A stretch of 64,000 bases of DNA from an uncultured Chloroflexia bacterium (GCA_963751585.1 CAVVVB010000017.1:28993-92992); one strand, 5' to 3'; shown: positions 2,373 to 29,115, counted from the stretch's first letter. Program-made: numbers and translations. Notes: generated from the letters alone by a model not told the origin.

Positions 2373-2447
2373 GCGGGAGTAACTCAGTGGTAGAGTTCCT
2401 GCCTTCCAAGCAGGCTGTCGCGGGTTCGAGTCCCGTCTCCCGCTCCA
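2373..2447 (+). tRNA. tRNA-Gly(UCC): tRNA-Gly (anticodon UCC), CCA encoded
   Basis: Cloverleaf read by eye: acceptor GCGGGAG/CTCCCGC, D arm ACTC/GAGT, anticodon stem CCTGC/GCAGG with loop CTTCCAA, T arm GCGGG-TTCGAGT-CCCGT, discriminator T, then CCA. Confidence 0.93.
2400..2444 (+). repeat. attL-like core: 3' 45 nt of tRNA-Gly, identical to 29071-29115
   Basis: Exact 45/45 direct repeat TGCCTTCCAAGCAGGCTGTCGCGGGTTCGAGTCCCGTCTCCCGCT. Confidence 0.85.
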
Positions 2448-2456
2448 ATTAGCTTC

Positions 2457-2485
2457 AAAATCTGCCTTCAGCGGCAGATTTTTTC
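2457..2485 (+). terminator. Rho-independent terminator after tRNA-Gly
   Basis: Stem ATCTGCC (2460-2466) pairs with GGCAGAT (2473-2479), with a 6-nt loop and a following T6 run. Confidence 0.75.
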
Positions 2486-2583
2486 ATGTCTAGACACCCT
2501 GCCATAAAAGCAGGATGTCGTAAGAAACTTCTGAATCAAACGTAAAATTCAAAAACTAGTCAACCTGCCTTATTAACATGAAA

Positions 2584-2627
2584 AGTCACAAGATAGTCAC
2601 AATGAGATCACAGCTAAGTCACGGTTC
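2584..2627. repeat. Four imperfect 11-bp phased direct repeats (AGTCACAnnnn)
   Basis: GTCAC at 2585, GTCAC at 2596, ATCAC at 2607 and GTCAC at 2618, so the spacing is exactly 11 bp. The reverse complement core TGTGAC resembles the TGTAAC core of the 7492-7548 array. Confidence 0.7.
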
Positions 2628-2852
2628 TGAATATTGACTAAATCACACAGAAGAGGCGATTGTTCCTTTATGGCATTTCCACTGAAGCAAAGCAGAGATG
2701 ATTCTGATTCAACACCAGCACCGGCTCCAGAACCCCCAGCGTAGGCCTGGGCATTTACCGCCATCGACGCGGCTCTGGTAATCGCCCTGATAGTCCTCTT
2801 TTCTAACTTCCGCCCTAAGTGAATTCCCCCCCCCACCCACCCAAAAAAAATG

Positions 2853-2880
2853 TTGACAAACCAAAAAAAGACATTAGAAT
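2853..2880 (+). promoter_or_regulatory. Sigma70-like promoter (TTGACA-16-TAGAAT) preceded by a C9..A8 tract
   Basis: TTGACA at 2853-2858 and TAGAAT at 2875-2880. An A8 run (2843-2850) sits just upstream like an UP element. The promoter lies about 200 nt upstream of the 3083 start. Confidence 0.55.
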
Positions 2881-3082
2881 AGGGCTGCTCAACCTGAAAT
2901 GACCTGGGTTCCTATAAGTTAATATTTGGCGGAGAAGCTGAGATTACAAGGTAAGGGCGCTAGTACCACAATGATATGATATCTGCTTAAGCAAGAGGCT
3001 CAAGGAGGTGATACATAACATAATTTATTGACGTTAAACTACGCTGTGACCTTTGCCCATGAATTGAGAAGGAGGAATTATT

Positions 3083-4219
3083 ATGAAGAAGCTATTTTCA
3101 GTCTTGTTGTTTATTGTACTGCTGGTCGGTTTGATTCTCGGCGGTTGCGCCGCTCCAGCTCCGGCCCCAGCCCCTGCACCAACACCAGCCCCGACACCAG
3201 CACCCGCATCCACACCGGCACTGTCTGCCGCACCAGCATCCGTAATCGATGTCTTCTGTCACGTTCTACCATCGAAGTATATGGAAGCTCTCAAGGCGCA
3301 ACTGCCCAAAGATTATTTTTTCAATATCATGTTCCAAATCTTTCCACAGCTGTATGATATGGATGCAAGATTCAAAGACACTGATATCCCGGGCTATAAA
3401 CAGGTAATATCTTTGGTGCTACCTGTTGAGGCAGTCGCTGACCCACAAAAAGCGGTAACCCTGGCACAGATGGCAAACGACGAAATGGCAGGGCTGGTCA
3501 AACAGTATCCGGATAAGTTTGCCGGGGCGATAGGCTGTCTACCAATGAATAATATGGACGCCGCTTTGAAAGAGGCGGACAGGTGCATAAACGTCTTGGG
3601 CTTTAAAGGCGTACAGATATACACGCCGACAAACGATAAGCCCTTGGACTCACCGGAATTCATACCGCTTTATGAAAAGATGCTTAAGTATGATTTACCC
3701 ATCTGGATTCACCCGTGGAGAGACCCGAGCTACCCGGATTATAGGACAGAAACCACATCAGAATTGCTGGCATTTCTCACGTGGGATTGGGATTTTGAGG
3801 AAACACTAGCTATGCATCGGTTGGCCTTAAGCGGCATTCTGGAAAAATATCCCAACCTGAAGTTTATTGTTCATCACGGTGGCTCGATGATACCGTTCTT
3901 CAATTCGAGGATACCCAACGCCGGCCAACCCGGTCTATTCACGCTGGGTGATCCAAAAATTTATGCGAAGCTCAGCAAGCCTACAATTGCGTATTTTAAG
4001 ATGTTCTACCCTGATACATCTAGCATGCCCGGGTCGGCGATAATAGAAATTCCCACTCAATTCTATGGTGCCGACCACATGCTATTTGCCACCGATTATC
4101 CCTTTCCAAATTCAAGTCCAAGTAAGATCATTGATTACGTAAGGAATATGAACATCAGCGATGCAGACAAAACAAAGATCTTTGAGACCAATGCCAAAAG
4201 ACTGCTGAAATTACCATAG
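3083..4219 (+). CDS. Lipoprotein-anchored amidohydrolase_2 family protein (ACMSD/LigW-like metal-dependent hydrolase/decarboxylase)
   Basis: RBS AGGAGG is present. The signal peptide has the lipobox LILGG|C, followed by a Pro/Ala/Thr linker (APAPAPAPAPTPAPTPAPAS...). The core carries IDVFCHVLP, WIHPW, VHHGGSMIPF and FATDYPFP. Confidence 0.8.
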   Translation: MKKLFSVLLFIVLLVGLILGGCAAPAPAPAPAPTPAPTPAPASTPALSAAPASVIDVFCHVLPSKYMEALKAQLPKDYFFNIMFQIFPQLYDMDARFKDTDIPGYKQVISLVLPVEAVADPQKAVTLAQMANDEMAGLVKQYPDKFAGAIGCLPMNNMDAALKEADRCINVLGFKGVQIYTPTNDKPLDSPEFIPLYEKMLKYDLPIWIHPWRDPSYPDYRTETTSELLAFLTWDWDFEETLAMHRLALSGILEKYPNLKFIVHHGGSMIPFFNSRIPNAGQPGLFTLGDPKIYAKLSKPTIAYFKMFYPDTSSMPGSAIIEIPTQFYGADHMLFATDYPFPNSSPSKIIDYVRNMNISDADKTKIFETNAKRLLKLP

Positions 4220-4711
4220 TGATTTAGGGAACGAGTTTATTATTGATTTCAGTTATAACTCTGGGCGGCAACAAGGTCTTGAGGCCAAAAAATGACAACG
4301 TAAATATACTGCTGCCTCTAAAAAATCACCCTTTAATTAAGCTAAGACGGCGAGAGAGAGGACTGGCAATATTGTAAGGAAAAGTTGAAAAGTGCTATCC
4401 AGAGCCGTACGTTTTTAGAGGGCCTGTGAGGAGCCAGGCATAAATTCGGTATCCGGCTAGTGACGATGGAATAGTGAAAATCGCTCCCATGTGTTGGGCT
4501 TCTCTTTTGGGTCGCATATTTTGCGGAATGAAATAGTGATGCCTGGGAGACTAGGTGAATAAACGAAGCAAGACAACAAACAAGGAAGGAGAGAACAATC
4601 AAGATCGTCAGCAACATGGGGACTAGTATATGAGGACCAGAGTCAAGTTATAAGATGTATAATCAAAGTTGAATAATATGCCACAGAAAGACACGATAAA
4701 GAGCCATTGGC

Positions 4712-6667
4712 ATGGAAACTACAAATATATTTGAGCGCAAGCAAACCGATAAACAACTGCAATTACTTAGCTCGATTGCAGAAATGGCATTGGATGCCAT
4801 TATCGTTACTGATACCAACTTCAAGATTGTCTATGTGAACAACGCTGTCCAGGACTTATATGGTTATTCTGAAAAGGAACTAATCGGAAATACGTTAGCG
4901 ATGCTGAATGCAGAACCGATTTCAGCAGAAATCCAGAAGGATATTTACACGATAGTTAAGAAAGGTGAGGTCTGGTTGGGGTCAATTTTGAAAAAGAAGA
5001 GGGATGGTAGCACATTCATATGCGGATGCAAAATTGCCCCGTATTATGACAACGAAGGTCAAATAGTAGCCCATATTAGTATCAACCGTGACATTACCAA
5101 GGGAGAGAACTGGGAACAACAGCACCGAGCAATTATGCAAGCAGCTGTCGACGGTTTTTGGACGCACGACCTGCAGGGGAAGCTACTTGAAGTCAATGAT
5201 GCCTACTGCAAGATGATAGGGTACACTGCCAAAGAACTGCTAGAGATGTCCATACCGGACTTCGAAGCTATCGAAATTACTGAAGATACTACTCGGCGTA
5301 TCCATAAACTAAATAAGCAGGGGTACAACCAATTATTCGAGCGTAGGCATAAGTGCAAGGATGGCAGGATAATTGATGTTGAGATTAGTTCTAGTTATCT
5401 CGATATGGGAAATGGGCAAATAATTACGTTTATCAGAAACATTACCGAACGCAAGGAGGCAGAAAAATTTCTAATAGAATCGGAACTGAAGTATAGGGAC
5501 CTGTATGATAATGCGCCGGTAACTTATTTCTCAGTAAACAATGACGGCTTGATTATAGAAAGCAACAAGGCGGCTCAAAATTGGTTAGGCTATTCTGCGG
5601 AAGAGCTTAAGGGCATGGAGGTCTTAGATATTTACGCTGAGGGGTCGAGACCAAAAGCACGGCTCCTCTTAGAGCGATTCAAACAGGGTCAATCAACTGA
5701 GAGTGAAGAAATGGTTTATTTAAGGAAGGACAAGCATCAGGTCTACGGTCTTCTCTCGGTTAGTCCAGTAATAGACTCATATGGCAAAGTTGTTGCCAGC
5801 CGTAGTGTAGTGAAAGACATAACTGAACGCAAGCAAATGGATGAACAACTGAGCAAATATAGCGAGCGTCTTGAGGAACTGGTGAAAAAGCGCACCCTTC
5901 AATTATCATCGGCGAATGAACAGCTGGAGAGTATGCTGCGACAGCAAAGAGATATGATTAGTCAGAGGGCCGATTTCACCAGGGCATTGGTGCATGAGCT
6001 AAAGACACCTCTTACTGGCATAGTTAGTTCCAGTGAGATACTGACCACGCGGCTTCAGGATAAACTGGAGCTAAAGTTGGCTAAAAACATATATAGAGGT
6101 GGTTTAAGTCTTAATACTAGGATTGATGAGCTCCTTGACCTAGCCAAAGGTGAAGTCGGTATACTCAAGGTTACATGTAAGTCATTAAATCCATTAAAGT
6201 TAATCCGTGAGGTGGCTGAGGGTATGACCCCAGAAGCCAGCAAGAGGGGGCAATCTATCATTCTGGATATTCCCAGATCATTACCTCGTATTTGGGCGGA
6301 TAGGGAGAGGATTAGGCAGATTCTTTTGAATCTTATCAGCAATGCCCTAAAATTTAATTCGGACGAAGGTAGATTAACTGTAAGAGCAAGGGCAGAAGGC
6401 GCCTCCATTGTATTCGAGATTGAGGATGAAGGCAGAGGTATGACTGGGGAAGAACAGGAGAGGTTATTCCAACCTTATTATCGAACCGATAGTGATCGGG
6501 AGAAACTTAGCGGGCTCGGATTAGGCCTGGCCCTATCAAAGAGACTGATTGAGCTGCACCAGGGACAGATATGGGTGAAAAGCCAAAAAGGGGAGGGCAG
6601 CACCTTCATTTTTTCGATACCTTTGGCTACTGAGGTAGAACACGGAAGCGGAGAGACGCATGGATGA
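4712..6667 (+). CDS. Cytoplasmic multi-PAS sensor histidine kinase
   Basis: Several PAS-like modules end in RNITERK/KDITERK. The H-box is ALVHELKTPL, the N-box LISNALKFN, and the G-boxes DEGRGM and GLGLGLALSKRL. No TM segment is present. Confidence 0.9.
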   Translation: METTNIFERKQTDKQLQLLSSIAEMALDAIIVTDTNFKIVYVNNAVQDLYGYSEKELIGNTLAMLNAEPISAEIQKDIYTIVKKGEVWLGSILKKKRDGSTFICGCKIAPYYDNEGQIVAHISINRDITKGENWEQQHRAIMQAAVDGFWTHDLQGKLLEVNDAYCKMIGYTAKELLEMSIPDFEAIEITEDTTRRIHKLNKQGYNQLFERRHKCKDGRIIDVEISSSYLDMGNGQIITFIRNITERKEAEKFLIESELKYRDLYDNAPVTYFSVNNDGLIIESNKAAQNWLGYSAEELKGMEVLDIYAEGSRPKARLLLERFKQGQSTESEEMVYLRKDKHQVYGLLSVSPVIDSYGKVVASRSVVKDITERKQMDEQLSKYSERLEELVKKRTLQLSSANEQLESMLRQQRDMISQRADFTRALVHELKTPLTGIVSSSEILTTRLQDKLELKLAKNIYRGGLSLNTRIDELLDLAKGEVGILKVTCKSLNPLKLIREVAEGMTPEASKRGQSIILDIPRSLPRIWADRERIRQILLNLISNALKFNSDEGRLTVRARAEGASIVFEIEDEGRGMTGEEQERLFQPYYRTDSDREKLSGLGLGLALSKRLIELHQGQIWVKSQKGEGSTFIFSIPLATEVEHGSGETHG

Positions 6668-7355
6668 TTTCAACAAAATACTCATCGTAGAGGACAATCA
6701 AGAAGTTGTTGAAGCCGTTTCTTTAGCCATTCAGATACGCTGGCCAGGATCAACAATTATGTCTACAGACAGCGGAAGAAAAGGGATAGAGTTGGCAATA
6801 GGAAAGCAGCCCGATATTATCATTCTTGATCTGGGCTTGCCTGATATTAGCGGGTTTGAGGTTCTAAAGGATATCCGTAATTTCTCTTCTATTCCCGTAA
6901 TCGTACTGACAGTAAGAGGAGAAGAAGCGGACGTCGTTAGAGGTCTTGAGTTGGGCGCCGATGAGTATATTGTAAAACCATTTCGTCAATTCGAGCTATT
7001 ATCCCGAATAAGAGCCCTAACCAGAAGAAAATATACGATCGAAGAAAATACCCCAATTGTCTCCGGGTCGCTTTGTTTTTACCCGATGGAACGTGTTGTA
7101 AAATTTAAGGGGCGGGAGATAAGTCTTACTCATTCGGAAAGTGTTATCCTGCAGCAACTAATGAAAAGGGCGGGTACCGTAGCGAGCCATGAGATACTAG
7201 CACAAGAGTTATGGGGCACTAATTATCCTGATGCCATCTCCGGTATAAAGGTTTATATAAGACGACTTCGGCAAAAGATTGAGGAAGACCAAGATCATCC
7301 GAAGCTAATCCTGACAAAGCATGGCTTGGGCTACTTATTTGCCAAGTCAGATTAA
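6660..7355 (+). CDS. OmpR/PhoB-family response regulator
   Basis: The receiver domain (ILIVEDN, IILDLGLPD, VKPF) is followed by a winged helix (IKVYIRRLRQKIE...HGLGYLF). The start overlaps the kinase stop (ATGGATGA). Confidence 0.9.
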   Translation: MDDFNKILIVEDNQEVVEAVSLAIQIRWPGSTIMSTDSGRKGIELAIGKQPDIIILDLGLPDISGFEVLKDIRNFSSIPVIVLTVRGEEADVVRGLELGADEYIVKPFRQFELLSRIRALTRRKYTIEENTPIVSGSLCFYPMERVVKFKGREISLTHSESVILQQLMKRAGTVASHEILAQELWGTNYPDAISGIKVYIRRLRQKIEEDQDHPKLILTKHGLGYLFAKSD

Positions 7356-7491
7356 CATCTAAATGGTATTCTATAATCCTATACGAAGCACATCTTAATA
7401 AAAGCCACTATCAACTTCAATCTCTCCTCTTTTTTCGTGCATTAATATGGCCCTGATCGGATTGCTATATCGCCTCATGCTATCTGAGCTA

Positions 7492-7548
7492 CTGTTTTAC
7501 CAAACTGTAACCAAACTGTAACCAAACTGTAACCAAACTGTAACCAGA
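7492..7548 (+). repeat. Tandem 11-bp direct repeats CTGTAACCAAA (4 good copies plus 1 degenerate); candidate response-regulator binding array
   Basis: CTGT starts at 7492 (13-nt degenerate unit), 7505, 7516, 7527 and 7538. The array lies 137 nt after the regulator gene and about 105 nt before the 7654 start. Confidence 0.85.
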
Positions 7549-7653
7549 GTGCAATGTGTCCACCAGTACTCTGTTTGTTAAACTTGTGATTAAATATAGG
7601 GTCGTTGAAATTGGTGCGCGTAAGTGGATAAAAAATAAGGAGGTTGAAAATAA

Positions 7654-8106
7654 ATGGAGGGAGAACAAATCCAGGTAGATGTTTCATCTGTTATCTTGTC
7701 TGATATCGATGACAAGAGAATCACTTTGGGGGACTTCAAAGGTAAGGTGGTACTTTTGACGGGAGGTGCAAACGCAGCGGCAAAACAATCGGAAGAATGG
7801 CTCCAGGCTTTGGTAGGAGAATGTAGCACAATGAAGGATGTTAAATATGCGCCTATAGCTTTTGTTGGGAAATTACCCCCATTTATTCCCAAGGGCATGA
7901 TAAAGGGAGAATTCAAAAAAATGGTGCAGACACCTTTAATTGCTTGGGATGATGGTCCGCAAAAGACACTAGGGCTCATAAAAAAGAATGTCAGCCATGC
8001 CTTCGTAATAGATAAACAGGGAGTGCTTCGATTCAGGCTGGCAGCACCGCTCTCTGATGAGAGTTTAAAGACAGTAATGGGGCAAGTTAAGAAGTTAGCC
8101 GCTTAA
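7654..8106 (+). CDS. Thioredoxin-fold (TlpA/AhpC-like) protein lacking the CxxC motif, copy 1
   Basis: The redoxin-like pattern ITLGDFKGKVVLL...FVIDKQGVLRFRL is present. The CxxC position reads TGGANAAAK. RBS AAGGAGG. About 70% identical to the 10343 copy. Confidence 0.6.
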   Translation: MEGEQIQVDVSSVILSDIDDKRITLGDFKGKVVLLTGGANAAAKQSEEWLQALVGECSTMKDVKYAPIAFVGKLPPFIPKGMIKGEFKKMVQTPLIAWDDGPQKTLGLIKKNVSHAFVIDKQGVLRFRLAAPLSDESLKTVMGQVKKLAA

Positions 8107-8213
8107 CTTGAACAACGCTCATATAGAGTAGCGCCGTTTATCGCAAAGTTACACAGCCGAACATTGGGGGCTCGAAACATTGAGCCATAACAGTAGAAAG
8201 GGGGATTTTATCG

Positions 8214-10202
8214 GTGCTCATTAGAAAACCAGCTGATGCAAGATTTACCAGGCTTTTTACTCCAGGTTATATTGGGAATTTGTGGATCAAGAATCGTGTC
8301 ATACGAGCTCCCATGGACCTAAACCTGGCCCTTAGTGACGGTTCTGTCACCCAGAGGCTTATAGACCATTATAAGGAGTTGGCTCGTGGCGGTGCCGGTA
8401 TGATCATTGTCGAATATTGCTATATTGACGAAGATGCTAGCAAAGCCAGCGATGGGCAACTTGGCATCAGTAATTCTAAACAACAGGCCGGATTACAGTG
8501 GTTAGCCAATGTCATAAAGGATGGAGGAGCCAGAGCGACCGTCCAGATAGCACATGCTGGACGGTCGAATTTCCCGGCCCGTAAGCCTTATAAATCAGCC
8601 TATCGCCGTGCCTGGCCCGATATCTATAAATACGGTGGCGCCGGACAACAGGGTAAAGGAGGCGCTATACCGGATGAGATGACCATCGAAGAGATTCAGC
8701 AGTGTATTGAGGACTTCGGCGTTGCCGCTTTGAGAGCCAAAGAAGTTGGTTTCGATGCCTGTGAGCTGCACGGCTCAAGCGGTTATCTGATTACCAATTT
8801 CCTCTCCCCCTGGAATCAGCGTCCCGACTGGTATGGCGGCCATTTTGAGAATAGAAAGCGGTTTGTCCTGCAGGTCTTCGAGAATATGCGCAAGAAGGTA
8901 GGCCCTAACTACCCACTGGGAGTTAGATTGAGCGGCACGGACTATGACTGGGCAAATCCGATACCCATAGAAGAGACTATTACCGTGGCTCAGGAACTGG
9001 AAGCGCTTGGCGCTAATTATATTCATGTGACCGGCGGCACGCACGAGGTCGCGCATAAGGAAACACCAACCATATATAACGACATGGCCTATCAGGCATG
9101 GGCATCCCAAAGGATTAAGGAAGCAGTCAGTATACCGGTAATTTGTTCTGGTTCTCTGGGTGACCCTGAACTGGCGGAAAAGATACTCGAGGAAGGTAAG
9201 GGAGATTTCGTCGGTCTGGCCAGACCGCTTCTTGCTGATCCGTACTGGCCGAAGAAAGCCCAGGAAGGGCATGTCGAAGATATTTGTCCCTGTATCCGCT
9301 GCATGGAATGCGTCGACCGGGGTGTCATGGTGGGTTATATCACCTGCACGGTTAATGCCGCTGCCACCAGAGAAGCTGAACTTGGCACGATTCCCCAGGC
9401 CAAACGGAGGAAGAAAGTTGCCATAGTTGGTGGTGGTCCTGGCGGTATGGAAGCCGCCAGAGTAGCCGCCTTGAAAGGACACGATGTCACTCTCTATGAA
9501 AAGAGAGAGCTGGGCGGTTTGCTTCTTGAAGCTGCTATCCCTGATTTCAAGCCGGACCTCAAACGCCTCACCAATTACCAAATTACCCAGTTGGAAAAGA
9601 CCGGGGTCAAAGTTCTGAAGGAGGAAGCTACGGTCACCAAGATCAAGAATGGCAAGTACGATGCCGTAATAGTAGCTAATGGTTCACAACCGATAATACC
9701 TGATGTCCCTGGTATCAAAAAACCGATTGTTGTCGCTGCTCTTGACGTTCTGCGTGGCGCCGAGACCAAAGATAACGTAATAGTAGTCGGTGGTGGGACG
9801 GTGGGCTGTGAAGTAGCCCTCTTTCTGGCCAAACAAGGCAAGGAAGTGACCATTGTAGAGGCACTAGATATGATGAGCCTGGCTGCAGGAATGTCTAATA
9901 CATTAAAGGGCGCCTTCTTTGAAATACTTATGCAATTATCATTTCAGCTTAAATGCGAACATGTGCTTACTGAAGTCGTCGATGATGGAATTGTTACCCT
10001 TCGTGGTTTAAAGAAAGAGAAGATTGCGGGTGATACGGTAGTTATTGCCATAGGCTTTACACCTGACCGGAACCTCTGGGACAATCTCTGCAAGATACCG
10101 GAATTGGAAGTTTATGCTATCGGTGACTGCGTCAAAGTGGGGACTAGCTATGACGCCATTCACGAGGGCTTCCACACCGCGTTTTCATTAATTTCTGATT
10201 AA
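8214..10202 (+). CDS. OYE-type NADH:flavin oxidoreductase fused to an FAD/NAD(P)-binding domain (2,4-dienoyl-CoA reductase / enoate reductase architecture)
   Basis: GTG start after AAAGGGGG. The N-domain has RAPM and HGSSGYLITNFLSPWNQRPDWYGG, followed by the Cys cluster CPCIRCMEC. Two dinucleotide folds follow: VAIVGGGPGGMEAA and VIVVGGGTVGCEVA. Confidence 0.85.
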   Translation: MLIRKPADARFTRLFTPGYIGNLWIKNRVIRAPMDLNLALSDGSVTQRLIDHYKELARGGAGMIIVEYCYIDEDASKASDGQLGISNSKQQAGLQWLANVIKDGGARATVQIAHAGRSNFPARKPYKSAYRRAWPDIYKYGGAGQQGKGGAIPDEMTIEEIQQCIEDFGVAALRAKEVGFDACELHGSSGYLITNFLSPWNQRPDWYGGHFENRKRFVLQVFENMRKKVGPNYPLGVRLSGTDYDWANPIPIEETITVAQELEALGANYIHVTGGTHEVAHKETPTIYNDMAYQAWASQRIKEAVSIPVICSGSLGDPELAEKILEEGKGDFVGLARPLLADPYWPKKAQEGHVEDICPCIRCMECVDRGVMVGYITCTVNAAATREAELGTIPQAKRRKKVAIVGGGPGGMEAARVAALKGHDVTLYEKRELGGLLLEAAIPDFKPDLKRLTNYQITQLEKTGVKVLKEEATVTKIKNGKYDAVIVANGSQPIIPDVPGIKKPIVVAALDVLRGAETKDNVIVVGGGTVGCEVALFLAKQGKEVTIVEALDMMSLAAGMSNTLKGAFFEILMQLSFQLKCEHVLTEVVDDGIVTLRGLKKEKIAGDTVVIAIGFTPDRNLWDNLCKIPELEVYAIGDCVKVGTSYDAIHEGFHTAFSLISD

Positions 10203-10342
10203 GAACCCGAATAAATAATGGAGGCTATTACTCGAAAAGAGGACGCCGGTAGACCGGTAGATCTGTAGAGCCAGGCAGTTTGGGAAATAGGCTTTTGTAA
10301 TTGGTATAATTCCTGAGAAATAAAATTAGGAGGTTTAAGAAA

Positions 10343-10795
10343 TTGGAAGGAGAACAAATCCAAGTAGACGTTTCATCTGTTGTTTTGTCTGATATCGACG
10401 ACAAGAAAATCACTCTGTCGGACCTCAAAGGTAAGGTGGTAGTTTTCTCGGGAGGTGGACAGCCAGCGGCGGAACAGTGTGAACAATGGGTCGCTGCTTT
10501 GATGAAAGAGTGTAGCGGAATGAAGGATGTCATGTTTAAGCCTCTAGCTTTCGTTGGCAGATTACCCATATTTGTTGACAAGAACACGATAAAGGGAGAG
10601 ATGAGAAAAGCGGATCCGATACCTTTAATTGATTGGGATGGTAGTCCACAAAAGGCGCTAGGGCTCATAAAACGGAATGTCAGTTATGTCTTCGTAATAG
10701 ATAGACAGGGAGTGCTTCGATTCAGGCTGGCAGCACCACTCTCCGATGAGAATTTAAAAACGGTAATAGAGCAAGTTAAAAAGATTGCTGTTTGA
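10343..10795 (+). CDS. Thioredoxin-fold protein lacking CxxC, copy 2 (TTG start)
   Basis: Paralogue of 7654..8106. The nucleotide sequence is near-identical at the 5' end (GGAGAACAAATCCA.GTAGA.GTTTCATCTGTT) and 3' end (CAGGGAGTGCTTCGATTCAGGCTGGCAGCACC). Confidence 0.6.
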   Translation: MEGEQIQVDVSSVVLSDIDDKKITLSDLKGKVVVFSGGGQPAAEQCEQWVAALMKECSGMKDVMFKPLAFVGRLPIFVDKNTIKGEMRKADPIPLIDWDGSPQKALGLIKRNVSYVFVIDRQGVLRFRLAAPLSDENLKTVIEQVKKIAV

Positions 10796-13166: not shown

Positions 13167-13167
13167 G

Positions 13168-15598: not shown

Positions 15599-15622
15599 CA
15601 CTGGCAAGTCTGGAGGAAAAAC

Positions 15623-20427: not shown

Positions 20428-21606
20428 ATGAAACCACAAGTGGACAAACAAACCTATGATACGTTGGGTAACGTAGCTGCAGAATGCGCCGGGTGCGAAT
20501 TATTATGCAGTCAAGCTTGTGAGGTCTTGCAAGAGATAGCCCCCACAGCTCCGGGCGATGTTGCCAGACAGGTTCTGGGCGGGCAAGTAGATGAGGATAT
20601 ACGCAGATTTCTACTAAGGTGTTCATTATGCGGTCTATGTGTTAATTCCTGCCCTAAAAGCCTTGATATACCGCAAATGGTTATCGCTGCCCGCAGGGTT
20701 ATGGTGGACACTGGTATGACGGATACTGAGGTCTACCGTATCATGTGGGTGGATCATGACTGGAATGCCATTACCATTTTTCGCGACACATATCAGTTAA
20801 ACTTCGACAACCTGATTAAAGAAAAATGCTACACCCTGTTTATGCCGGGTTGCTCACTGGCTAACGAAGCACCTCAATTGGTATATACCACCATCGACTG
20901 GTTAGACGAGCAAGGAGGAGATAAAGCCGGTGTTATATTGATGTGCTGTGGTATGCCTCTGTTGGAAATGGGGCTAACGGAGAGGGCTAAAAGATATGAA
21001 AGGTCATTCTGGCAAAAGGTAAAAGAGACCGGTGCCAGAAGAGTGGTGGTGGCTTGTCCGAATTGTTTCCATCACTTAATTGCCAGTGAACTGAAAAAAG
21101 ACATAGAAGTGGTCTCTATGCTGGAACTAATGGCTAAATCCGGTTTACGTGTTCCGTCTGCAAAAGGCAAAAAAATTACTATTCACGATTCCTGTCCAAG
21201 CCGGTATGGTGAGATGGGCAAGTGGGCACGTCAGTTACTGGGTGATTATGAGATTACGGAAATGGAACACCACGGGAAGAACAGTTTGTGCTGTGGCTCT
21301 GGAGGTGTGGTGTCAATGGTGGATAAGGAGTTGCATGACAAACGGTCAAAAAGAAGATTGGAGGAATTTAAAAATACAGGCGCTGATATCTGCGCCACAT
21401 ATTGCATGGCATGTTGGCACACCTTGTCTCAGAAAGCGGTGCAGGGCGACGTGCGATTTATTCTTGAGCTTGTATTCGATCAGTTTATAGACCATGCAGA
21501 ATATCAGAATAAGTTGCAGGCTATGTGGGAGGGTGAGTGGGGGGTCTATAACGACTTTCGGCTTCGAAACTCGCAAATGCTCGACGAATGCAGAAAGGAA
21601 AAATGA
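20428..21606 (+). CDS. Fe-S oxidoreductase with two CCG domains (HdrD/GlpC/LutA-like)
   Basis: CSLCGLCVNSCP ferredoxin motif, then MPGCSL...CCGMPL and HDSCPSR...CCGSGG. The start is taken at MKPQVDK. Confidence 0.75.
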   Translation: MKPQVDKQTYDTLGNVAAECAGCELLCSQACEVLQEIAPTAPGDVARQVLGGQVDEDIRRFLLRCSLCGLCVNSCPKSLDIPQMVIAARRVMVDTGMTDTEVYRIMWVDHDWNAITIFRDTYQLNFDNLIKEKCYTLFMPGCSLANEAPQLVYTTIDWLDEQGGDKAGVILMCCGMPLLEMGLTERAKRYERSFWQKVKETGARRVVVACPNCFHHLIASELKKDIEVVSMLELMAKSGLRVPSAKGKKITIHDSCPSRYGEMGKWARQLLGDYEITEMEHHGKNSLCCGSGGVVSMVDKELHDKRSKRRLEEFKNTGADICATYCMACWHTLSQKAVQGDVRFILELVFDQFIDHAEYQNKLQAMWEGEWGVYNDFRLRNSQMLDECRKEK

Positions 21607-21607
21607 A

Positions 21608-22939
21608 ATGGCCTCTCTAGTTCCAGCCGGCCCTGTTATTGATCAAACAGAGAGCGTATGTCCACATTGCCTGAAGACCATACCCGCAACCATTTATGAG
21701 AATGGTGGCAGCGTCTACATGGGCAAAACGTGCCCCGAGCATGGCCACTGTGATGTTTATCTCTGGCCGGATGCGAATCATTACCTGTGGTTTACCAACT
21801 TTGCCTTTCCATCGAAATCACGTACGCCGCAGACCGAATGCTCAGATGGTTGTCCGCGAGATTGCGGGCTATGCCCGAACCACAAGAGAGGCATCACACT
21901 GGCTGAAATCGAGGTGACCTGGCGTTGTAACCAATCCTGCCGAGTCTGCTTTATGTCGGCGAGCGATAGTCTCCCCGATCCTTCGCTGGAGACTATATAT
22001 GATATGCTACAAACCGTCCAGCGCTACGATGGAGGACATGCCTCCCTGCAGATAACAGGAGGTGAGCCGACAGTGCGCGCTGATCTACCCGATATCATCA
22101 GGCTTGCCCGTCAAACCGGGTTCAGCACTGTCGAGATCAACACCAACGGCTTAGTCATTGGGAGAGACCGTGACTTCCTGTGTACGCTGAAAGAGGCTGG
22201 CCTTACCAATATCTATCTGCAGTTTGATGGCATCACGCCTGAGGTAACCCGTATCTTAAGGGGAGAAGGCCTATTCGATTGCAAACTGCAGGCGATTGAA
22301 AATTGCCGCCTGGAAGATATGAAGGTCATTCTGGCACCGACTATTATAAAGGAGATAAACGACGGCCAGATGGGCGGTCTCATTGATTTTTGCATGAACA
22401 ATATGGACGTGATTAGTGGTCTGGCGATTCAGCCCGCCTTTCTGTCTGGCCGATTTGATGTGGAAATGCAGCAACGCCTTTCGCTTGGTGATATCGTAGC
22501 CATGATAGAGGAGCAAACTGGCGGTAAGATCGCAGCGCGCAACTTCTGGCCCTTAAGCTGCATACATCCCCTCTGTGCCTGTTCAACTTATCTTATCGGA
22601 GAGGGCGAAAACTATACCACGCTTACAAGTAACATAACCGAAACTGACTACACAAAATATTTCAATGAAAGTAGCCCGCAAGGTTCGGTATTCGCCGACG
22701 TATTTGCAAATATGCATCATGAGAATAACACCCCCCAAGGGCTTGGTGTACTCATCATGAGCTATATGGATGCCTGGACGCTAGATGTGAAACGGCTGCG
22801 GGAATGCAACCTGGCAGTCACCGTCAGGGATGGGCGCTCCATACCATTTTGTGCGTACCACTTAACTGCCACCTCAGGCCGAAGGTTATATCCACTGGGC
22901 CAAAGGAGACCGTCTGCCATTGATTGCACGCAGGTCTAA
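21608..22939 (+). CDS. Radical SAM protein with N-terminal Zn-ribbon, MJ0619/Tes (GDGT-MAS)-like family
   Basis: CPHCLKTIPATIYENGGSVYMGKTCPEHG, CPRDCGLCPNHK and the radical SAM motif CNQSCRVC. The ATG lies 1 nt after the upstream stop. The family call is from memory of the motif pattern. Confidence 0.65.
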   Translation: MASLVPAGPVIDQTESVCPHCLKTIPATIYENGGSVYMGKTCPEHGHCDVYLWPDANHYLWFTNFAFPSKSRTPQTECSDGCPRDCGLCPNHKRGITLAEIEVTWRCNQSCRVCFMSASDSLPDPSLETIYDMLQTVQRYDGGHASLQITGGEPTVRADLPDIIRLARQTGFSTVEINTNGLVIGRDRDFLCTLKEAGLTNIYLQFDGITPEVTRILRGEGLFDCKLQAIENCRLEDMKVILAPTIIKEINDGQMGGLIDFCMNNMDVISGLAIQPAFLSGRFDVEMQQRLSLGDIVAMIEEQTGGKIAARNFWPLSCIHPLCACSTYLIGEGENYTTLTSNITETDYTKYFNESSPQGSVFADVFANMHHENNTPQGLGVLIMSYMDAWTLDVKRLRECNLAVTVRDGRSIPFCAYHLTATSGRRLYPLGQRRPSAIDCTQV

Positions 22940-25094
22940 TTGCACCTTATGCGGGTACCTATGTGGCATCCTGGCTTACTGCAGTGAAGATGGTAATCTA
23001 GTCAGGCTTGAGCCCGATAGTACGCGGTTCCCTTATAATGCTTCAATTATGAAAAAATGCGCTCGCTTTCACGAAACGAGTGCTATCCTAGATCATCCTG
23101 ATCGTATAAATTATCCAGTTAAACGCGTGGGTGAACGAGGCTCGGGCAAATGGCAAAGGGTGAGCTGGGACGAAGCGCTAGATGACATCGCGGGCAGAGT
23201 GCAAGACCTCAAGAAGCAGTATGGTGCTGAAACTCTGGCTACCTGCATTGGGGCTCCCCATTCCATATACTGGCCAATGCACCGTTTTATGAACTTATTC
23301 GGCAGCCCCAATAACATCGGTATCGGGCATATTTGCTGGAATCCAGCAATCTGGGTACATAGTCTCACATATGGGTGGCCTATCAAGCCTGAGCTGGACC
23401 CCGACAGAACCAACTGCGTAATCCTATGGGGGATCAATCCCGCCGAGTCTGATAACTCCCTGTTCTGGGAAACAATATTTAGATACAGCCAGTCCGGCAA
23501 GCCTCTTATCGTGATTGACCCGCGTTATACAAAGACTGCTGCAAAAGCGAGTACGTGGTTACCTGCCAGACCGGGAACAGATGTGGCACTGGCACTGGCA
23601 CTGATAAACGTTATTATAAAAGAGGAACTTTATGATAAAGGATTTGTTAACAAATGGTGCTCCGGATTCGAAGAGCTTAAAAACAATGTGGCCGGATACT
23701 CCCCCAATAGCGTATCTTCTATTACCGGTATCCACAGCCAAATTATAATCGAAATAGCCCGTCTTTTTGCTGAGAACAGACCGGCAACGATATTCAGCGG
23801 TCTGGGTATCGACCAGAGCGGGTGTAATTGTACTCAGGCTTTACGTGCTCTGGCAATCCTACGGGCTATTACTGGCAATGTAGATAAGCCTGGAGCCTGT
23901 CACCTTTGTGAGCAGCCTGACTTTATATCAGAAGCTGAGTTGGAGATGAGCAGCACCCTGCCCGCATCGTGCACAAAGAAACAACTATGTCAGAACGTAT
24001 TCCCACTCCTCACATATGATGGCTATAAGGCACTTACTCGCTACACTCTGTTGCATGGGAAAAGGTTACCCGTCCGTTATTTAACGTCGGCGCACCCCTT
24101 TCTTGCCTGGCAAGCCATGTTGACTGGGAATCCATATCCTATAAAAGCTCTTATAGTTATGGCAAGTAATCCACTACTTACCCAGGCTAACACCAATATG
24201 GTCTACCAGGCGCTTAAAAGCCTCGATCTTATTGTAGTACTGGATCAGTTTTTAACGCCTACCGCTATGCTTGCTGATTACGTACTTCCAAGCGCAGGAA
24301 GTCTTGAACAAAGTATGATTCAGATGGATGGAGGGATTTCCAACATAGCGTATGGCGGCAGCCGTGCTATTGCTCCGATGTATGAAAGAATGACAGATTA
24401 TTCCTTCTGGTATGAGCTTGGACAGCGCTGTGGGCAAACAGAGTACTGGCTATGGAAGACGGCGGAGGAAGCGTTCGATGAAGTCTTCTCCCGTGCCGGG
24501 TTAACATGGGAAGAATTTTGCGGCACAGGTATTTATTCGCCCAATAACTCTTATTATAAATACGAAAGGGAAGGGTTTGCCACGCCGAGCGGGAAAATAG
24601 AACTCCGTTCCATTCTGCTGGAACAGCTTGGATACAACCCTCTGCCCTATTTTACTCCTGCTCAAAACAACACCTCTGACTATCCTCTTACTCTGGTAAC
24701 AGGGGTGAGGCACCAACCATATTACGCTACCGAGTTCCGAAATATACAAAAATTTAGAAGGATACATCCAAATCCCATTGCGGAAATGGATAAGATAACC
24801 GCAACCCGGTTCGGAGTGCAGGAAGGGGACCATGTATGGATAGAGACACCAAAGGGGCGTATCAAACAGGTTGTCGGGCTTGCAAACATGCTACCAGGGC
24901 TGGTATGTATCGAATTTGGATGGTGGTATCCTGAATTGCTGCCTACAGAGCCGGCCCTGGGTGGCCTGTGGGAATCTAATGCCAATGTATTGACTGGTTC
25001 AGATATTGAGTCGTGTGACCCGATACTGGGGCAATGGACGTATCGCACTCTACAATGTAAAATCTACAAGGTTGACGAGGCAAGAGGATGCTAG
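22920..25094 (+). CDS. Mo/W-bisPGD oxidoreductase catalytic subunit, paralogue C (no Tat signal, no cognate beta/gamma)
   Basis: TTG start. CTLCGYLCG...C, INYPVKR, GHICWNP, VIDPRYTKTA and GDHVWIET...LQCKIYKV. Overlaps the upstream gene by 20 nt. Confidence 0.88.
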   Translation: MIARRSNCTLCGYLCGILAYCSEDGNLVRLEPDSTRFPYNASIMKKCARFHETSAILDHPDRINYPVKRVGERGSGKWQRVSWDEALDDIAGRVQDLKKQYGAETLATCIGAPHSIYWPMHRFMNLFGSPNNIGIGHICWNPAIWVHSLTYGWPIKPELDPDRTNCVILWGINPAESDNSLFWETIFRYSQSGKPLIVIDPRYTKTAAKASTWLPARPGTDVALALALINVIIKEELYDKGFVNKWCSGFEELKNNVAGYSPNSVSSITGIHSQIIIEIARLFAENRPATIFSGLGIDQSGCNCTQALRALAILRAITGNVDKPGACHLCEQPDFISEAELEMSSTLPASCTKKQLCQNVFPLLTYDGYKALTRYTLLHGKRLPVRYLTSAHPFLAWQAMLTGNPYPIKALIVMASNPLLTQANTNMVYQALKSLDLIVVLDQFLTPTAMLADYVLPSAGSLEQSMIQMDGGISNIAYGGSRAIAPMYERMTDYSFWYELGQRCGQTEYWLWKTAEEAFDEVFSRAGLTWEEFCGTGIYSPNNSYYKYEREGFATPSGKIELRSILLEQLGYNPLPYFTPAQNNTSDYPLTLVTGVRHQPYYATEFRNIQKFRRIHPNPIAEMDKITATRFGVQEGDHVWIETPKGRIKQVVGLANMLPGLVCIEFGWWYPELLPTEPALGGLWESNANVLTGSDIESCDPILGQWTYRTLQCKIYKVDEARGC

Positions 25095-25546
25095 TGTTAC
25101 GCAAGGCAAGAAAAAGCGACCATTCCGCTCTTGTTGAACTTCTCGCAAAAGCTAACATGCGTTACGTCGAGCCAATTAGGTCCTATACGATCGCACTTGA
25201 AGGACCAATTATTGCCGGTTGCGCAAGGTTGGAGGACCATGGTGATATCGTAATGCTAAGGCCACTTGTCGTAGCCGAAAAGTACCGGAGAAAGAGACTG
25301 GGCAAGCATATACTCAAGAAAATTATGCCAGATGATAAACCTACTATTGTTGCTGCACGCGGTGAGGCAATCCCGTTCTATGTCGCCATCGGATTCAACA
25401 AGACTGGCTGGCATGCTGTATCCGATGAACAACGAGACGAATGCAAGCTATGCCCTGAACGAAAAGTGTGCAATCCACAACCCATGATATACGTTCCAGA
25501 CCGTTGCGAAAATGAATATAGTATTAATCAATCCCAGAACGGTTAA
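25088..25546 (+). CDS. GNAT-family N-acetyltransferase
   Basis: 152 aa. The motif-A-like stretch is LVVAEKYRRKRLGKHILKK. Overlaps the upstream stop by 7 nt. Confidence 0.65.
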   Translation: MLVLRKARKSDHSALVELLAKANMRYVEPIRSYTIALEGPIIAGCARLEDHGDIVMLRPLVVAEKYRRKRLGKHILKKIMPDDKPTIVAARGEAIPFYVAIGFNKTGWHAVSDEQRDECKLCPERKVCNPQPMIYVPDRCENEYSINQSQNG

Positions 25547-26888
25547 AGCGAGCACTTTCCCTGGAGGAGAGTTCTTTAGCTGCACCGCACCCAATATGGG
25601 ATTAGCTTATCTCGCTGCGGTTCTGGAACAGGAAAACCACGACGTTAAGATAATAGACGCGCAGGCGTTGGGGCTTGACGACGAAGGGTTGAAAAGAAGC
25701 CTTTCAGATTTAGAGCCGGAAATAATCGGGGTTACTGCTACAACAACGACTATATATGACGGCTTTAACGCTGTCAGCATAGGCAAGGAATTATATCCCC
25801 GGGCGTTCACTGTCATGGGTGGTATCCATGCTTCTTATCTGCCGTTTGAGACGTTGCAGGAATGCTCTCAATTAGATGCCGTATGTATTGGCGAGAGTGA
25901 AGAAACCGTAGTTGAACTTACTTGTGCCTTAGAGAATGGAATGGATGAATTGGCTCGCGTTAAAGGAATTGCCTATAGGTGGGAGAACAAGATAAGAAAA
26001 ACGCCATCGAGAATTTCTCTCCCTGATTTGGATGCCTTGCCGCTTCCGGCCAGGCATCTCCTTCCCATGGAGTATTATGCCTCCGGAGGGCACCCGCACA
26101 GGACTGCTTCGATCGTCTCTAGCCGCGGCTGTCCCTTCAAATGTGCGTTCTGTGCTACGCCGTTTATCGCGGGCCGCAGATATCGAGCTAGGAGTGCTGA
26201 GAGTATATTGAATGAAATAGAACAGATAGTATCAAAATATGAAATGAATTCATTTGAATTTGTCGACGATCTGTTCACACTGGATAATAGACGTGTTGAA
26301 GCCATTTGCAGCGGGATCCTTGAGCGCGGTATGAAAGTACGCTGGTCGTGCAGCAGCCGGGCAGATACAGTCAATCCATGTTTGCTCGCCACTATGGCAG
26401 ATGCCGGTTGCGGATGCATTTTCTATGGGATCGAATCCGGCTCTCAGCGAATACTGGACTGTATGCGGAAGGGGGAAAACCTTAAGCAAATAGAGGAAGC
26501 TGTACGATATACGAGAGAAGCGGGGATACAAACATGGGGGTTTTTCATTCTTGGCTTCCCAGAGGAAACCAGAGAGGATATCGAAAGGACCATCAGATTT
26601 GCGTGCGAACTGGATTTAGATTTTGTGGAATTCTTTATAGCATCAGCTTTCCCCGGCAGTGCTCTTTATGAACGTGCAAGAAGGGATGATCTGCTTTTGA
26701 TTGAAGGCTGGTCGGATATCTCGTATGGAAAAGCAAACATAAAGAACCCTGTCCTTTTTCCACAGGACGTGCAGGAATATCTGATTAAAGCTTACCGAGA
26801 TTTCTATACGTCGTCACGGGTGATTTCCAGATTACTAAGAGAGGGAAAGACTCAATTTCTGTCTGAAATCAAGTCCAAGACGGGATAA
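25512..26888 (+). CDS. B12-binding-domain radical SAM protein (class B)
   Basis: N-terminal cobalamin-binding-like domain (IVLINP...GLAYLAAVLEQENHDVKIID...VMGGIHAS), then SSRGCPFKCAFC. Overlaps the GNAT gene by 35 nt. Confidence 0.85.
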   Translation: MNIVLINPRTVKASTFPGGEFFSCTAPNMGLAYLAAVLEQENHDVKIIDAQALGLDDEGLKRSLSDLEPEIIGVTATTTTIYDGFNAVSIGKELYPRAFTVMGGIHASYLPFETLQECSQLDAVCIGESEETVVELTCALENGMDELARVKGIAYRWENKIRKTPSRISLPDLDALPLPARHLLPMEYYASGGHPHRTASIVSSRGCPFKCAFCATPFIAGRRYRARSAESILNEIEQIVSKYEMNSFEFVDDLFTLDNRRVEAICSGILERGMKVRWSCSSRADTVNPCLLATMADAGCGCIFYGIESGSQRILDCMRKGENLKQIEEAVRYTREAGIQTWGFFILGFPEETREDIERTIRFACELDLDFVEFFIASAFPGSALYERARRDDLLLIEGWSDISYGKANIKNPVLFPQDVQEYLIKAYRDFYTSSRVISRLLREGKTQFLSEIKSKTG

Positions 26889-27056
26889 GGGAAGCTTACA
26901 GGATTCATGTTGACAAATGTCAGCACTACCTATGCTCCAGTAGAACTGGGTATCAAAACCGGACGGCTGGGAACATTCCAGTTCTCGACGGATGCTGCTT
27001 ATGTTCCTCCTTTCGCCAGCCGTCGAGACTTGCTAACCTGAGATGAAACGAAAGTA

Positions 27057-27905
27057 ATGAGAAACCACGCATTATCATTATTTACCAAATCGCCCCAGCC
27101 GGGAACGACCAAGACGCGTCTAACTCGGAAGTACGGAGGCTCACTTAGTGACGAGGAAGCGGCCGATTTTTACAGGGCAACAATGCTTGACGTTGCGGCT
27201 GCTGCGTTTCGCGCACTGGAGCTATGCCGTAAGACGGCGGCTGATGAAAACAGGATGGATAAATATGACTTTTGCGTCTCGTGTTCGCCTGAAAGCGAAA
27301 AACCCAGACTCGAGAAGATCTTCCAGGAAGAGTGCTCAAATGAGGCCAATATTCGCTATATAGTTGATAACGGGCAGAATTTTAATGAGCATTTCAATAA
27401 CCACTACCAGCAATTATTCCGGCAAGGATACCATTCAGTTGTATGTATCGGCGGTGATTTGCCTACTATATCGCCTGAATTTATACATAACGCGTTCCAA
27501 TGGCTTGATTATATGGGAACAGGGTCGGAAAGAGGCGCAATGGTAATTGCCCCCTGCCAGGCAGCCGGTGTATCGCTGGTTGGATTAACGGCAGCCGCAC
27601 CAATGGATTTTGCCGGTGTATTCTACAATATGCAGGGTGTACCGGCTCTGGAAGCCATAATCAAGACAGCTGCAGAGCGACAGATACCTACATCAGTGCT
27701 TGAAACCCAGGCTGATGTGGATACCATGGAAGATCTAGCACATACTATTGCACTAATAAACGCGCTGAAGTATGCTAGCCTTTTTTCACCTGGTAAGTTC
27801 GTCCCCGCGCGCACGCTCGCATGGATACAAGAGCGGGGGCTTGTTGTACATACTCCGCCAAATGAAGAACACGACCCAAGAGGCACAATTGATGGTCAAG
27901 ATTGA
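27057..27905 (+). CDS. DUF2064 / TIGR04282-like nucleotidyl/glycosyl-transferase-like protein
   Basis: The N-terminal LSLFTKSPQPGTTKTRLT matches the DUF2064 signature (aK.P.pG.vKTRL) as I recall it. Confidence 0.6.
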   Translation: MRNHALSLFTKSPQPGTTKTRLTRKYGGSLSDEEAADFYRATMLDVAAAAFRALELCRKTAADENRMDKYDFCVSCSPESEKPRLEKIFQEECSNEANIRYIVDNGQNFNEHFNNHYQQLFRQGYHSVVCIGGDLPTISPEFIHNAFQWLDYMGTGSERGAMVIAPCQAAGVSLVGLTAAAPMDFAGVFYNMQGVPALEAIIKTAAERQIPTSVLETQADVDTMEDLAHTIALINALKYASLFSPGKFVPARTLAWIQERGLVVHTPPNEEHDPRGTIDGQD

Positions 27906-28875
27906 AATAGACATAGAACGATGCAGGGGCTGCGGTACTTGCGCGGACTTTTGCCCGACATCTGTTTTTGAGCTTTCGGAAATAAACGGACACAAGGTCA
28001 GTTCCGCTGCACGTATTGACGATTGCTGCGCCTGTAACACCTGCGCAGGGCAATGTCCGCAGGGGGCGATACTACTGACGGATGCGATTTCAGAGAGGGA
28101 ATGCCTGGACAGCATCAGTACCGGAGCTCCTGCTACCCCTCTGGATAACGAGGAGCGTGAAAGCTATGGCAAGCTTTCGAAATTACTTGTGGATATATTG
28201 GGCTTGCGTTGGAGTCCTGTTGCCGTTACCCTTATATCCAAAGACACAGCACTACCCAACGTTCCGCTGCCACGCAGCCGGTTGCGCTATTGCCAGGCAT
28301 TGATGATGGCTCGCCGGGGCAAGACTTTGCTGATGCCGCCTCAAGTTCATGCCTGCCCCGATGGTATGTATATCCTGGGACTAACCAGTGCTTCTCCCAA
28401 GCTTGCCACTGGGGAAATATATATCAAGTTTGGCAAACTGGCGTCTATTGAAGCGGCGCGCCAGATGATTGCCGAGCGTCCTCATCTGCCTGAAAAATCG
28501 GTAAAGGCCACGCTTGTATCACCACTGGAAAAGGCTGTTATAAAACCGGATGTTGTAGTGGTTGTGGCTCCGCCGGAAAGCATGATGTGGTTATGTATGG
28601 CATCTTCTTTTTATACGGGTAAGCGTTTTGAGTTCAAGGTAAGTGGTTATAACTCACAATGCATAGAAGCTACGCTGTACCCTTATACAACAGGCGATAT
28701 AAACATATCTCTGGGGTGCTATGGCTGCCGCGCTGCTTCAGATATAGGTGACGATATGATGTTTATGGGGATACCTTTAGCTAAATTAGGCTCGTTGGTA
28801 AGTGGACTGGAGCAATTGGGTAAAAAGGCTATTCCAGACTCTCGCATGAAAATCTATTTGCCGCCGTTGGTTTAA
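27892..28875 (+). CDS. 2x[4Fe-4S] ferredoxin domain fused to a DUF169 domain
   Basis: CRGCGTCADFCP and CCACNTCAGQCP, then DUF169-like WSPVAVTL...RYCQALMMAR...ACPDG...GCYGCR. The start at MVKIEID overlaps the upstream gene by 14 nt. Confidence 0.65.
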   Translation: MVKIEIDIERCRGCGTCADFCPTSVFELSEINGHKVSSAARIDDCCACNTCAGQCPQGAILLTDAISERECLDSISTGAPATPLDNEERESYGKLSKLLVDILGLRWSPVAVTLISKDTALPNVPLPRSRLRYCQALMMARRGKTLLMPPQVHACPDGMYILGLTSASPKLATGEIYIKFGKLASIEAARQMIAERPHLPEKSVKATLVSPLEKAVIKPDVVVVVAPPESMMWLCMASSFYTGKRFEFKVSGYNSQCIEATLYPYTTGDINISLGCYGCRAASDIGDDMMFMGIPLAKLGSLVSGLEQLGKKAIPDSRMKIYLPPLV

Positions 28876-29070
28876 CCGATGAAAAATCACCAGCTTTTAG
28901 ATGCCAGACCGTTATCACAAAGTCACGGTCACCTCACACTTTTTGCAAATTCTTACTATTAATGCGATAATATTTTTCAAGAGGAGTAATTAAAGACCTC
29001 CTGCCTAGTTAACAGTTAGCTTCGGGCTTTAACTAGGAAATGAATCTGGGACAAGTAAAAATATTCAGCT

Positions 29071-29115
29071 TGCCTTCCAAGCAGGCTGTCGCGGGTTCGA
29101 GTCCCGTCTCCCGCT
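29071..29115 (+). repeat. attR-like core: orphan copy of the 3' 45 nt of tRNA-Gly
   Basis: Identical to 2400-2444. The upstream sequence is not tRNA-like, and TTTTTT follows instead of CCA. Confidence 0.85.

Follow-up and report, generated by a model that had tools for sequence, protein, structure and literature searches.

How did a large block of metabolic genes come to lie between a tRNA gene and a displaced copy of that gene's own 3' part, in a locus where no recombinase can be recognised? The question is raised by a 64-kb stretch of DNA from an uncultured Chloroflexia bacterium (GCA_963751585.1 CAVVVB010000017.1:28993-92992), which as a whole we call the window and whose positions we count from its first base; an intact tRNA-Gly gene starts at 2373, and a displaced copy of its 3' part ends at 29115. 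The feature is real and well delimited, and it is best read as a decayed island of the cis-mobilizable type, a known kind that involves no new mechanism. Our preferred explanation, which we consider probable though well short of certain, is that an element with a tRNA-Gly-specific tyrosine integrase brought the block, that its recombination genes were lost afterwards, and that what remains is an island of the type known as a cis-mobilizable element (CIME). The flanking genes place the window, which belongs to a contig of 177.9 kb, among the uncultured Dehalococcoidia (Chloroflexota) of the sort known from fens, peat and sediments.

The tRNA-Gly(TCC) gene at 2373-2447 on the plus strand, on what we take as the left attachment (attL) side, is intact, encodes its own CCA, and is the single tRNA called in the 64-kb window, ARAGORN and Rfam (RF00005, 69.7 bits) agreeing on this. 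Positions 28-72 of the tRNA, which begin in the 5' strand of its anticodon stem and end with the discriminator base (2400-2444), recur in the same orientation at 29071-29115 on the putative attR side, with 45 of 45 bases matching (repeat family D8, 100% identity). Since local alignment of the repeat scores 90-96, against a best of 20-24 after shuffling, an exact 45-nt repeat cannot be attributed to chance. The surroundings of the two copies differ: the preceding base is C at copy 1 and T at copy 2, and copy 1 is followed by CCA and then a hairpin terminator (~2457-2485), while copy 2 is followed by TTTTTT instead of CCA and has unrelated sequence, not a tRNA 5' half, on its 5' side. Neither ARAGORN nor Rfam matches a tRNA model to 29071-29115, and we reject the idea that copy 2 is a pseudo-tRNA gene on that ground.

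Between the copies lie 22-24 plausible genes, all on the plus strand, in a cargo block of ~26.2 kb (2680-28925) that shares 86-94% nucleotide identity with contigs of other datasets; the gene assignments come from Pfam and NCBIfam. An Amidohydro_2 lipoprotein stands at the left end; the block also encodes a PAS histidine kinase and an OmpR-type regulator, two small AhpC-like paralogues, an OYE/FadH-type flavoenzyme, and three molybdopterin oxidoreductases of the PhsA/DMSO-reductase kind with 4Fe-4S and NrfD partners, together with an MBL-fold protein, ArsS (TIGR04167, above cutoff), a CCG/dicluster protein, a TrsS/Tes-like radical SAM enzyme, a GNAT protein, a B12 radical SAM enzyme, a TIGR04282-like DUF2064 protein and a ferredoxin-DUF169 fusion. 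No integrase, transposase, relaxase, excisionase, conjugation, mobilization or serine recombinase domain was found by Pfam in any open reading frame (ORF) of the window, and ARAGORN found no tmRNA there. A six-frame search with a profile built from 31 tyrosine integrases that adjoin the tRNA core in metagenome loci, run over every stop-to-stop frame of 20 aa or more across the 64 kb, likewise returned no tyrosine recombinase in any frame (best E = 0.77). The features of an integrative and conjugative element (ICE) or an integrative and mobilizable element (IME) are accordingly absent from the window ORFs, which include no integrase of the island's own. On all these points the original prediction was sound: it had claimed the exact same-orientation repeat, a second copy lacking the tRNA 5' half and followed by T6 rather than CCA, a one-strand block of about 25 genes with purely metabolic and regulatory content, and the absence of integrase, excisionase, transposase and relaxase. 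Exact look-ups of the window proteins at 29216-29878 and 3083-4219 returned no record.

The same core serves as an attachment site in related genomes. A metagenome scan for the exact 45-mer gave at least 120 loci, and among the matches listed (n = 123 occurrences) 63 comprise the full tRNA, whereas 56 are without its 5' half; viral contigs gave no match. Locus L095 contains a full tRNA and a displaced copy of positions 28-75, 5.2 kb apart, with an element that encodes a Phage_integrase protein (E = 1.9e-24), an excisionase-like HTH_17 protein, an AAA_25 protein and a Cro/CI-type repressor. Because the sequence after its displaced copy equals the sequence after the full tRNA in L085, L085 represents the empty site for this element. 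L194, L197 and L201 each have an integrase right after an identical tRNA, and L083 holds a displaced tRNA-Gly copy of 51 nt, CCA included. The left edge of the repeat falls at tRNA position 28 both in the window and in L095 and at position 27 in L083, which fits a shared recombination site; the 75 nt of the tRNA are themselves identical in L081, L095, L107, L127, L155 and L172. These observations show that the 45-mer is a real att core used by integrase-bearing elements in this lineage. To that extent the original reading of the repeats as attL and attR stands; its further step, the arrival of the block here by att recombination, we infer rather than observe, because all other copies of the block lie in non-tRNA contexts.

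The scan also revealed other arrangements at this core. More than 40 displaced tRNA-Gly copies from soil metagenomes (L087-L200) are preceded by a conserved TAxCAAGCGAGCGGCGATCTTGCGACACC and followed by 9 nt and AACCGTCTCTCTGCA, often with an integrase thereafter, a pattern resembling an attP-like junction that would belong to a widespread family of elements using the same 45 nt. In L107, L126 and L195, three tandem tyrosine-recombinase genes, in the recombinase-in-trio arrangement, lie directly upstream of an identical tRNA-Gly. The 47 nt upstream of the tRNA in the window are 94% identical to those in L107 and L126.

The block has a history separate from that of its flanks, and by its distribution it is foreign. 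Locus L210 (ENA ERZ25039515 contig_97542) matches window 2710-16708 at 91.9-94.5% nucleotide identity, L205 (GCA_042578605.1) matches 21515-28878 at ~91%, L206 and L207 (ENA / Logan) match 27680-28929 at 92%, and L211 (JGI) matches 27387-28921 at 86%, whereas sequence outside the repeats reaches at best 72-78% (the 3-hydroxyacyl-CoA dehydrogenase (3HCDH) gene, the AFOR cluster and the pan region). Cluster mates at 90% identity in JGI, ENA and NCBI exist for 8/9 island proteins and for 2/15 flank proteins (Fisher p = 5e-4), the two flank proteins being a 45-aa fragment and a small ferredoxin. These differences bear directly on a reading in which the block is vertically inherited chromosome and the tRNA fragment an old, unrelated scar that rearrangements such as inversions moved 26.6 kb away. 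A uniform composition across the locus would suit that reading, as would the paralogues of island genes (amidohydrolase, molybdopterin enzymes) that lie outside the repeats and the inversion of the tRNA-to-AFOR segment in L083, which indicates that large rearrangements happen here. We nevertheless consider it improbable, given the 90% mates that island proteins have in many datasets and flank proteins do not, nucleotide identities of 92% for the block and at most 78% for the flanks, a fragment that is still 45/45 identical, and the lack of any fragment in L081, L127, L155 and L172.

The other copies of the block have differing neighbours. In L210 the left end of the block abuts the truncated, 78-aa N-terminus of an integrase (Phage_int_SAM_1, E = 0.004; N-terminus of the L197 integrase that stands beside tRNA-Gly, E = 6e-6), and the fragment and block end together adjoin a cluster of type I restriction-modification and PIN genes. 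At the right end, L206, L207 and L211 share a flavin reductase and a GT4 gene, L205 has CxxCxxCC, PfkB, DeoC and LytB genes, and L212, at 70% identity, presents a third context, different again; L205 and L206 are 95.7% identical through the DUF169 stop codon and diverge from there. In the window, two arms unique to this genome separate the block from the cores: a left arm of 232 nt (2448-2679), homology to L210 beginning only at ~2680, and a non-coding right arm of 145 nt (28926-29070), before or at the edge of which homology with L205, L206, L207 and L211 stops (28878-28929) and in which no ORF has a family match. Since the other copies lack a tRNA context and homology is limited to ~2680-28925 between unique arms, the cargo appears to be a mobile module in its own right, one that is not tied to this att site and that accompanies integrase-type elements. 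We can suggest, tentatively, that the 2680-28925 block is actively exchanged among uncultured Dehalococcoidia of peat and sediment as integrase-less cargo, which tyrosine-integrase elements specific for tRNA-Gly would carry along in cis after accreting at this hot spot.

The arms give weight to another explanation of the same scar. In it, the att cores and arms would be the relic of an older, gutted integrative element, and the block would have come separately, by recombination of incoming DNA or by local rearrangement, and replaced the interior. The unique arms between block and cores agree with such a history; so do block ends that elsewhere carry no tRNA fragments, a right breakpoint that varies between 28878 (L205) and ~28925 (L206, L211), and the way in which the block cuts into an integrase gene in L210. 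This history, however, requires two events where one suffices, and the block occupies the entire space between the arms with no residual element genes; the capture of genes by integrative elements, followed by decay, is moreover well documented (PMC5704250). We regard replacement of a gutted interior as unlikely, while giving it more credence than vertical inheritance, and prefer delivery of the block by a tRNA-Gly-specific element that later decayed.

Some short sequences in the arms and elsewhere may have a regulatory or integrative role. Besides its hairpin terminator, the left arm holds four AGTCAC/ATCAC motifs spaced 11 nt apart (2584, 2595, 2606, 2617), and it weakly resembles the spacer between tRNA and integrase in L197 (CAAAAAC...CAACCTGCCT). 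A second array with an 11-nt period, ACCAAACTGTA repeated 4.9 times, lies at 7499-7553 directly after the OmpR-type regulator gene, and in L210 four GGTCAC/GGTCAA motifs at a spacing of 10-11 nt stand upstream of the truncated integrase. The window arrays (7499-7553, 2584-2623) and the L210 array are candidate sites that a regulator or an integrase could bind. The 9-mer AAGTCACGG, present only at 2616 and 28920, was considered as an integrase arm site and is not relied on, because 0.15 such matches are expected by chance between two 200-nt arms and the right-hand one falls within L206-homologous sequence.

Several observations count against integration at this tRNA as the source of the block, and we set them out together. 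No tRNA or tRNA fragment borders the block in any other genome sampled, and the amidohydrolase of the left end has a 74%-identity homolog that occurs by itself in a core-gene neighbourhood. That the 92% copies belong to genomes whose core genes differ from those of this one is a view based on absent cluster mates. No genome was found in which tRNA-Gly is joined to the sequence at 29116, which would be the exact empty site; what the empty-site comparison proposed in the original prediction did turn up concerns a larger segment, L155 lacking the whole of 2.4-54.7 kb. The displaced copy is without CCA, whereas nearly all related tRNA-Gly genes encode it, and a 12-nt tRNA fragment (TAGAGTTCCTGC, positions 19-30, 12/12 by blastn-short) lies on the plus strand at 29127-29138, 11 nt past the displaced copy, where the chance of so near a match is ~8e-4. 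Because of the missing CCA and this additional fragment, the scar is not a simple one-step product, and the attR side saw more than one event. Both the displaced copy and the TAGAGTTCCTGC fragment run into GC-TTTTT, which, together with the fragment itself, suggests that attR underwent a second event or lost sequence by a microhomology deletion.

Composition belongs among these adverse points. GC is 0.476 inside the island and 0.494 and 0.497 outside, GC at third codon positions gives no signal either, and tetranucleotide distances are 0.0190 within the island, 0.0189 between island and distal region and 0.0196 between island and core, so that the interior of the repeats is indistinguishable from the flanks. 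The original prediction had named equal composition over 2.4-29.1 kb, and relatives carrying the block in a non-tRNA context, as findings that would speak against it, and both were observed, the latter in the 86-94% copies of other genomes. We read the two findings as signs of transfer among similar relatives and of a cargo that is not tied to the att site, and not as a refutation of integration. Atypical composition is common in genomic islands and is not obligatory. The donors of the block were evidently compositionally similar relatives, and therefore no compositional signal is seen.

The identity of the tRNA across genomes raises one further alternative, an assembly chimera in which the contig switches populations at the tRNA and at the displaced copy. 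The 75-nt tRNA is shared unchanged by many related populations, and single-base frameshifts in the window suggest an error-prone assembly. Yet both junctions include unique arms that are contiguous with the block; the block is ~8% different from every other copy found and thus was not pasted from those contigs; the 45-nt repeat is far shorter than long reads; and some genome with the block between both cores would be needed even so. A chimera is therefore very improbable, far more so than the replacement of a gutted interior, and we return to integration at tRNA-Gly followed by decay.

The island is part of a larger variable region. In L155, a more distant relative, the order is 3HCDH, 3.2 kb, tRNA-Gly, 50 nt, and then the promoter and pan motif RNA that correspond to window 54.67-54.79 kb. 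Because tRNA-Gly directly precedes the pan leader in that genome, the whole of 2.4-54.7 kb is variable at the tRNA, and the island is the proximal part of ~52 kb. In L172 and L127 the distance from tRNA-Gly to the pan leader is 1.4 and 3.3 kb, and homology with the window resumes at 54685 in L155 and at 54709 in L127 and L172, from where synteny with relatives is conserved. The pan motif RNA (54709-54792, plus strand; Rfam RF01749, 46.8 bits, cutoff 36.2) is the leader of an operon with genes for an S58 peptidase and a DUF2520 protein, followed by panD, panB and panC. The distal variable region (29116-54684), which L155, L127 and L172 do not have between their tRNA-Gly and pan operon, shows flank-like divergence from relatives and has no cluster mates, and for these reasons is probably older or ancestral; no distal repeat is detectable in it. 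The 26.6-kb island would then be the proximal and newest layer, as tandem accretion at a tRNA-proximal att site predicts, and we place the order of accretion on that footing.

Further comparisons concern the edges of this region. The 9 nt after the full tRNA (CCAATTAGC) are also found 3' of the tRNA in L081 and L127, each of which carries its own small insert, and the emptiest site, L155, reads CCAAACCACC there; for this reason the CCAATTAGC flank may be element-derived in the window as well as in L081 and L127. In L083, 400 nt separate the displaced tRNA-Gly copy from the AFOR gene downstream of it (window 45281); the L083 cluster of AFOR, ThiS and amidohydrolase genes (L083 12727-19725, window 45270-51374) is 73-76% identical in nucleotide sequence to that of the window, and with respect to 3HCDH the entire segment from the tRNA to AFOR has the opposite orientation. 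No further displaced copies were found in the window near 45.0-45.3 kb or 54.6 kb. All that turned up was a T-arm 8-mer, GGTTCGAG, at 54654-54661, which precedes the pan promoter by 13 nt. It may be what remains of the oldest displaced copy, but chance could equally account for it (p ~0.06), and we do not rely on it. The distal region contains five paralogous Peripla_BP_6 solute-binding lipoprotein genes (30055-32617, 38654-39898, 41770-43014, 52577-53824), of which an inverted pair (31457-32602 and 52586-53731, 78% identity) could mediate a ~20-kb inversion. For the GT87 flank gene, relatives at ~60% identity have no tRNA-Gly nearby, and no synteny is seen at such distance.

The cargo invites some observations of its own. 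Its right half (19357-28875) comprises ArsS, the TrsS/Tes-like enzyme, the B12 radical SAM enzyme, the TIGR04282-like protein and the DUF169-ferredoxin fusion; the TrsS/Tes-like enzyme scores 354 bits against the tetraether lipid synthase model, below its cutoff, and in relatives at ~60% identity (L001-L011) a GT87 glycosyltransferase gene adjoins ArsS-like and TIGR04282-like genes. This gene content hints at lipid chemistry or at organo-arsenic or organo-selenium chemistry. The first molybdopterin oxidoreductase gene (10889-13166) is split by one extra T near 11733 (GGTTCTC); a selenocysteine codon was considered at this split and rejected, the two parts lying in different frames as a result of the extra base. 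The 3HCDH gene just upstream of the tRNA is likewise split by a single-base frameshift at ~1700, and L210 has many single-base breaks, at positions other than those of the window. The frameshifts in the window (~1700, ~11733) may be true pseudogenes or long-read errors.

We propose that an element whose tyrosine integrase recognises the 3' part of tRNA-Gly(TCC) would have integrated into the gene, rebuilding the tRNA at attL and displacing a 45-nt copy of its 3' part to attR. The element would have carried, or later acquired, the 26-kb metabolic and regulatory block that circulates among related uncultured Dehalococcoidia. Subsequent loss of the integrase and excision genes would leave what is seen here, short arms, cargo and two intact att cores, and the island would form the newest, tRNA-proximal layer of a ~52-kb region built at a tRNA hot spot. 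The island may now be immobilised, or may still be mobilised in trans, the two options that the original prediction had named.

The locus provides an example, from a lineage represented only by metagenomes, of a large respiratory and radical-SAM block that moves between genomes, here with its att scar intact and its integrase gone, and the same cargo occurs in at least three other contexts in near relatives. It also bears on how metagenome-assembled genomes of Dehalococcoidia are read: tRNA-Gly(TCC) marks a variable hot spot, the genes found at it are not to be counted as core metabolism, and composition-based island detection fails where donor and recipient are alike. If the active exchange in cis that we suggest tentatively above is true, mobilization of the CIME type, shown so far only in a few cultured bacteria, would extend to a major uncultured lineage. 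In that case cis-mobilized cargo, here three Mo/W-pterin oxidoreductase modules, a cluster of ArsS, TrsS/Tes-like and B12 radical SAM genes and a two-component regulator of its own, would explain the spread of respiratory modules.

Three known systems bracket the island. With classical islands and prophages inserted in tRNA genes by P4- or lambda-type tyrosine integrases it shares an intact tRNA at one end, a displaced 3' copy starting in the anticodon stem at the other, and content between the repeats that varies among strains; it differs in having no integrase beside the tRNA and no compositional signature, and in a repeat whose last base is the discriminator, where theirs continues through CCA. 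The ssrA islands of Dehalococcoides are arranged in tandem downstream of the tmRNA gene and bounded by 20-bp repeats of its 3' end (McMurdie 2011, PMC3146451); some have no integration module, and their authors proposed a cis-mobilizable nature for them (PMC3146451). Common to those islands and to ours are the bacterial class, a small-RNA gene as target, tandem islands within ~100 kb downstream, respiratory and metabolic cargo, and islands without an integration module. The target, however, is tRNA-Gly here and ssrA there, the repeat measures 45 rather than 20 nt, the integrases of relatives are tyrosine recombinases in contrast to the CcrB-like serine recombinase DsiB, and ssrA islands are low in GC whereas no GC signature is seen here.

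The third system is the CIMEs, decayed derivatives of ICEs or IMEs that have kept attL and attR and lost the genes for integration and transfer (Pavlovic 2004, Bellanger 2011, reviewed in PMC5704250). The definition of CIMEs comes from experiments on the fda site of Streptococcus, where they move once an ICE has integrated next to them (PMC5704250). Their movement has thus been seen in experiments, while the island described here is known from sequence; its host, moreover, is an uncultured member of the Dehalococcoidia, and the same cargo is also found away from any att site. Two traces bear on decay from an ICE or IME, the unique arms beside the cores and the truncated integrase that abuts the same block in L210. 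In its construction the island resembles a CIME closely: att sites that are intact as direct repeats at the 3' end of the target gene, with cores identical over 45 nt, enclose cargo only, with no integrase, excisionase or relaxase, at a site that appears to have grown by tandem accretion.

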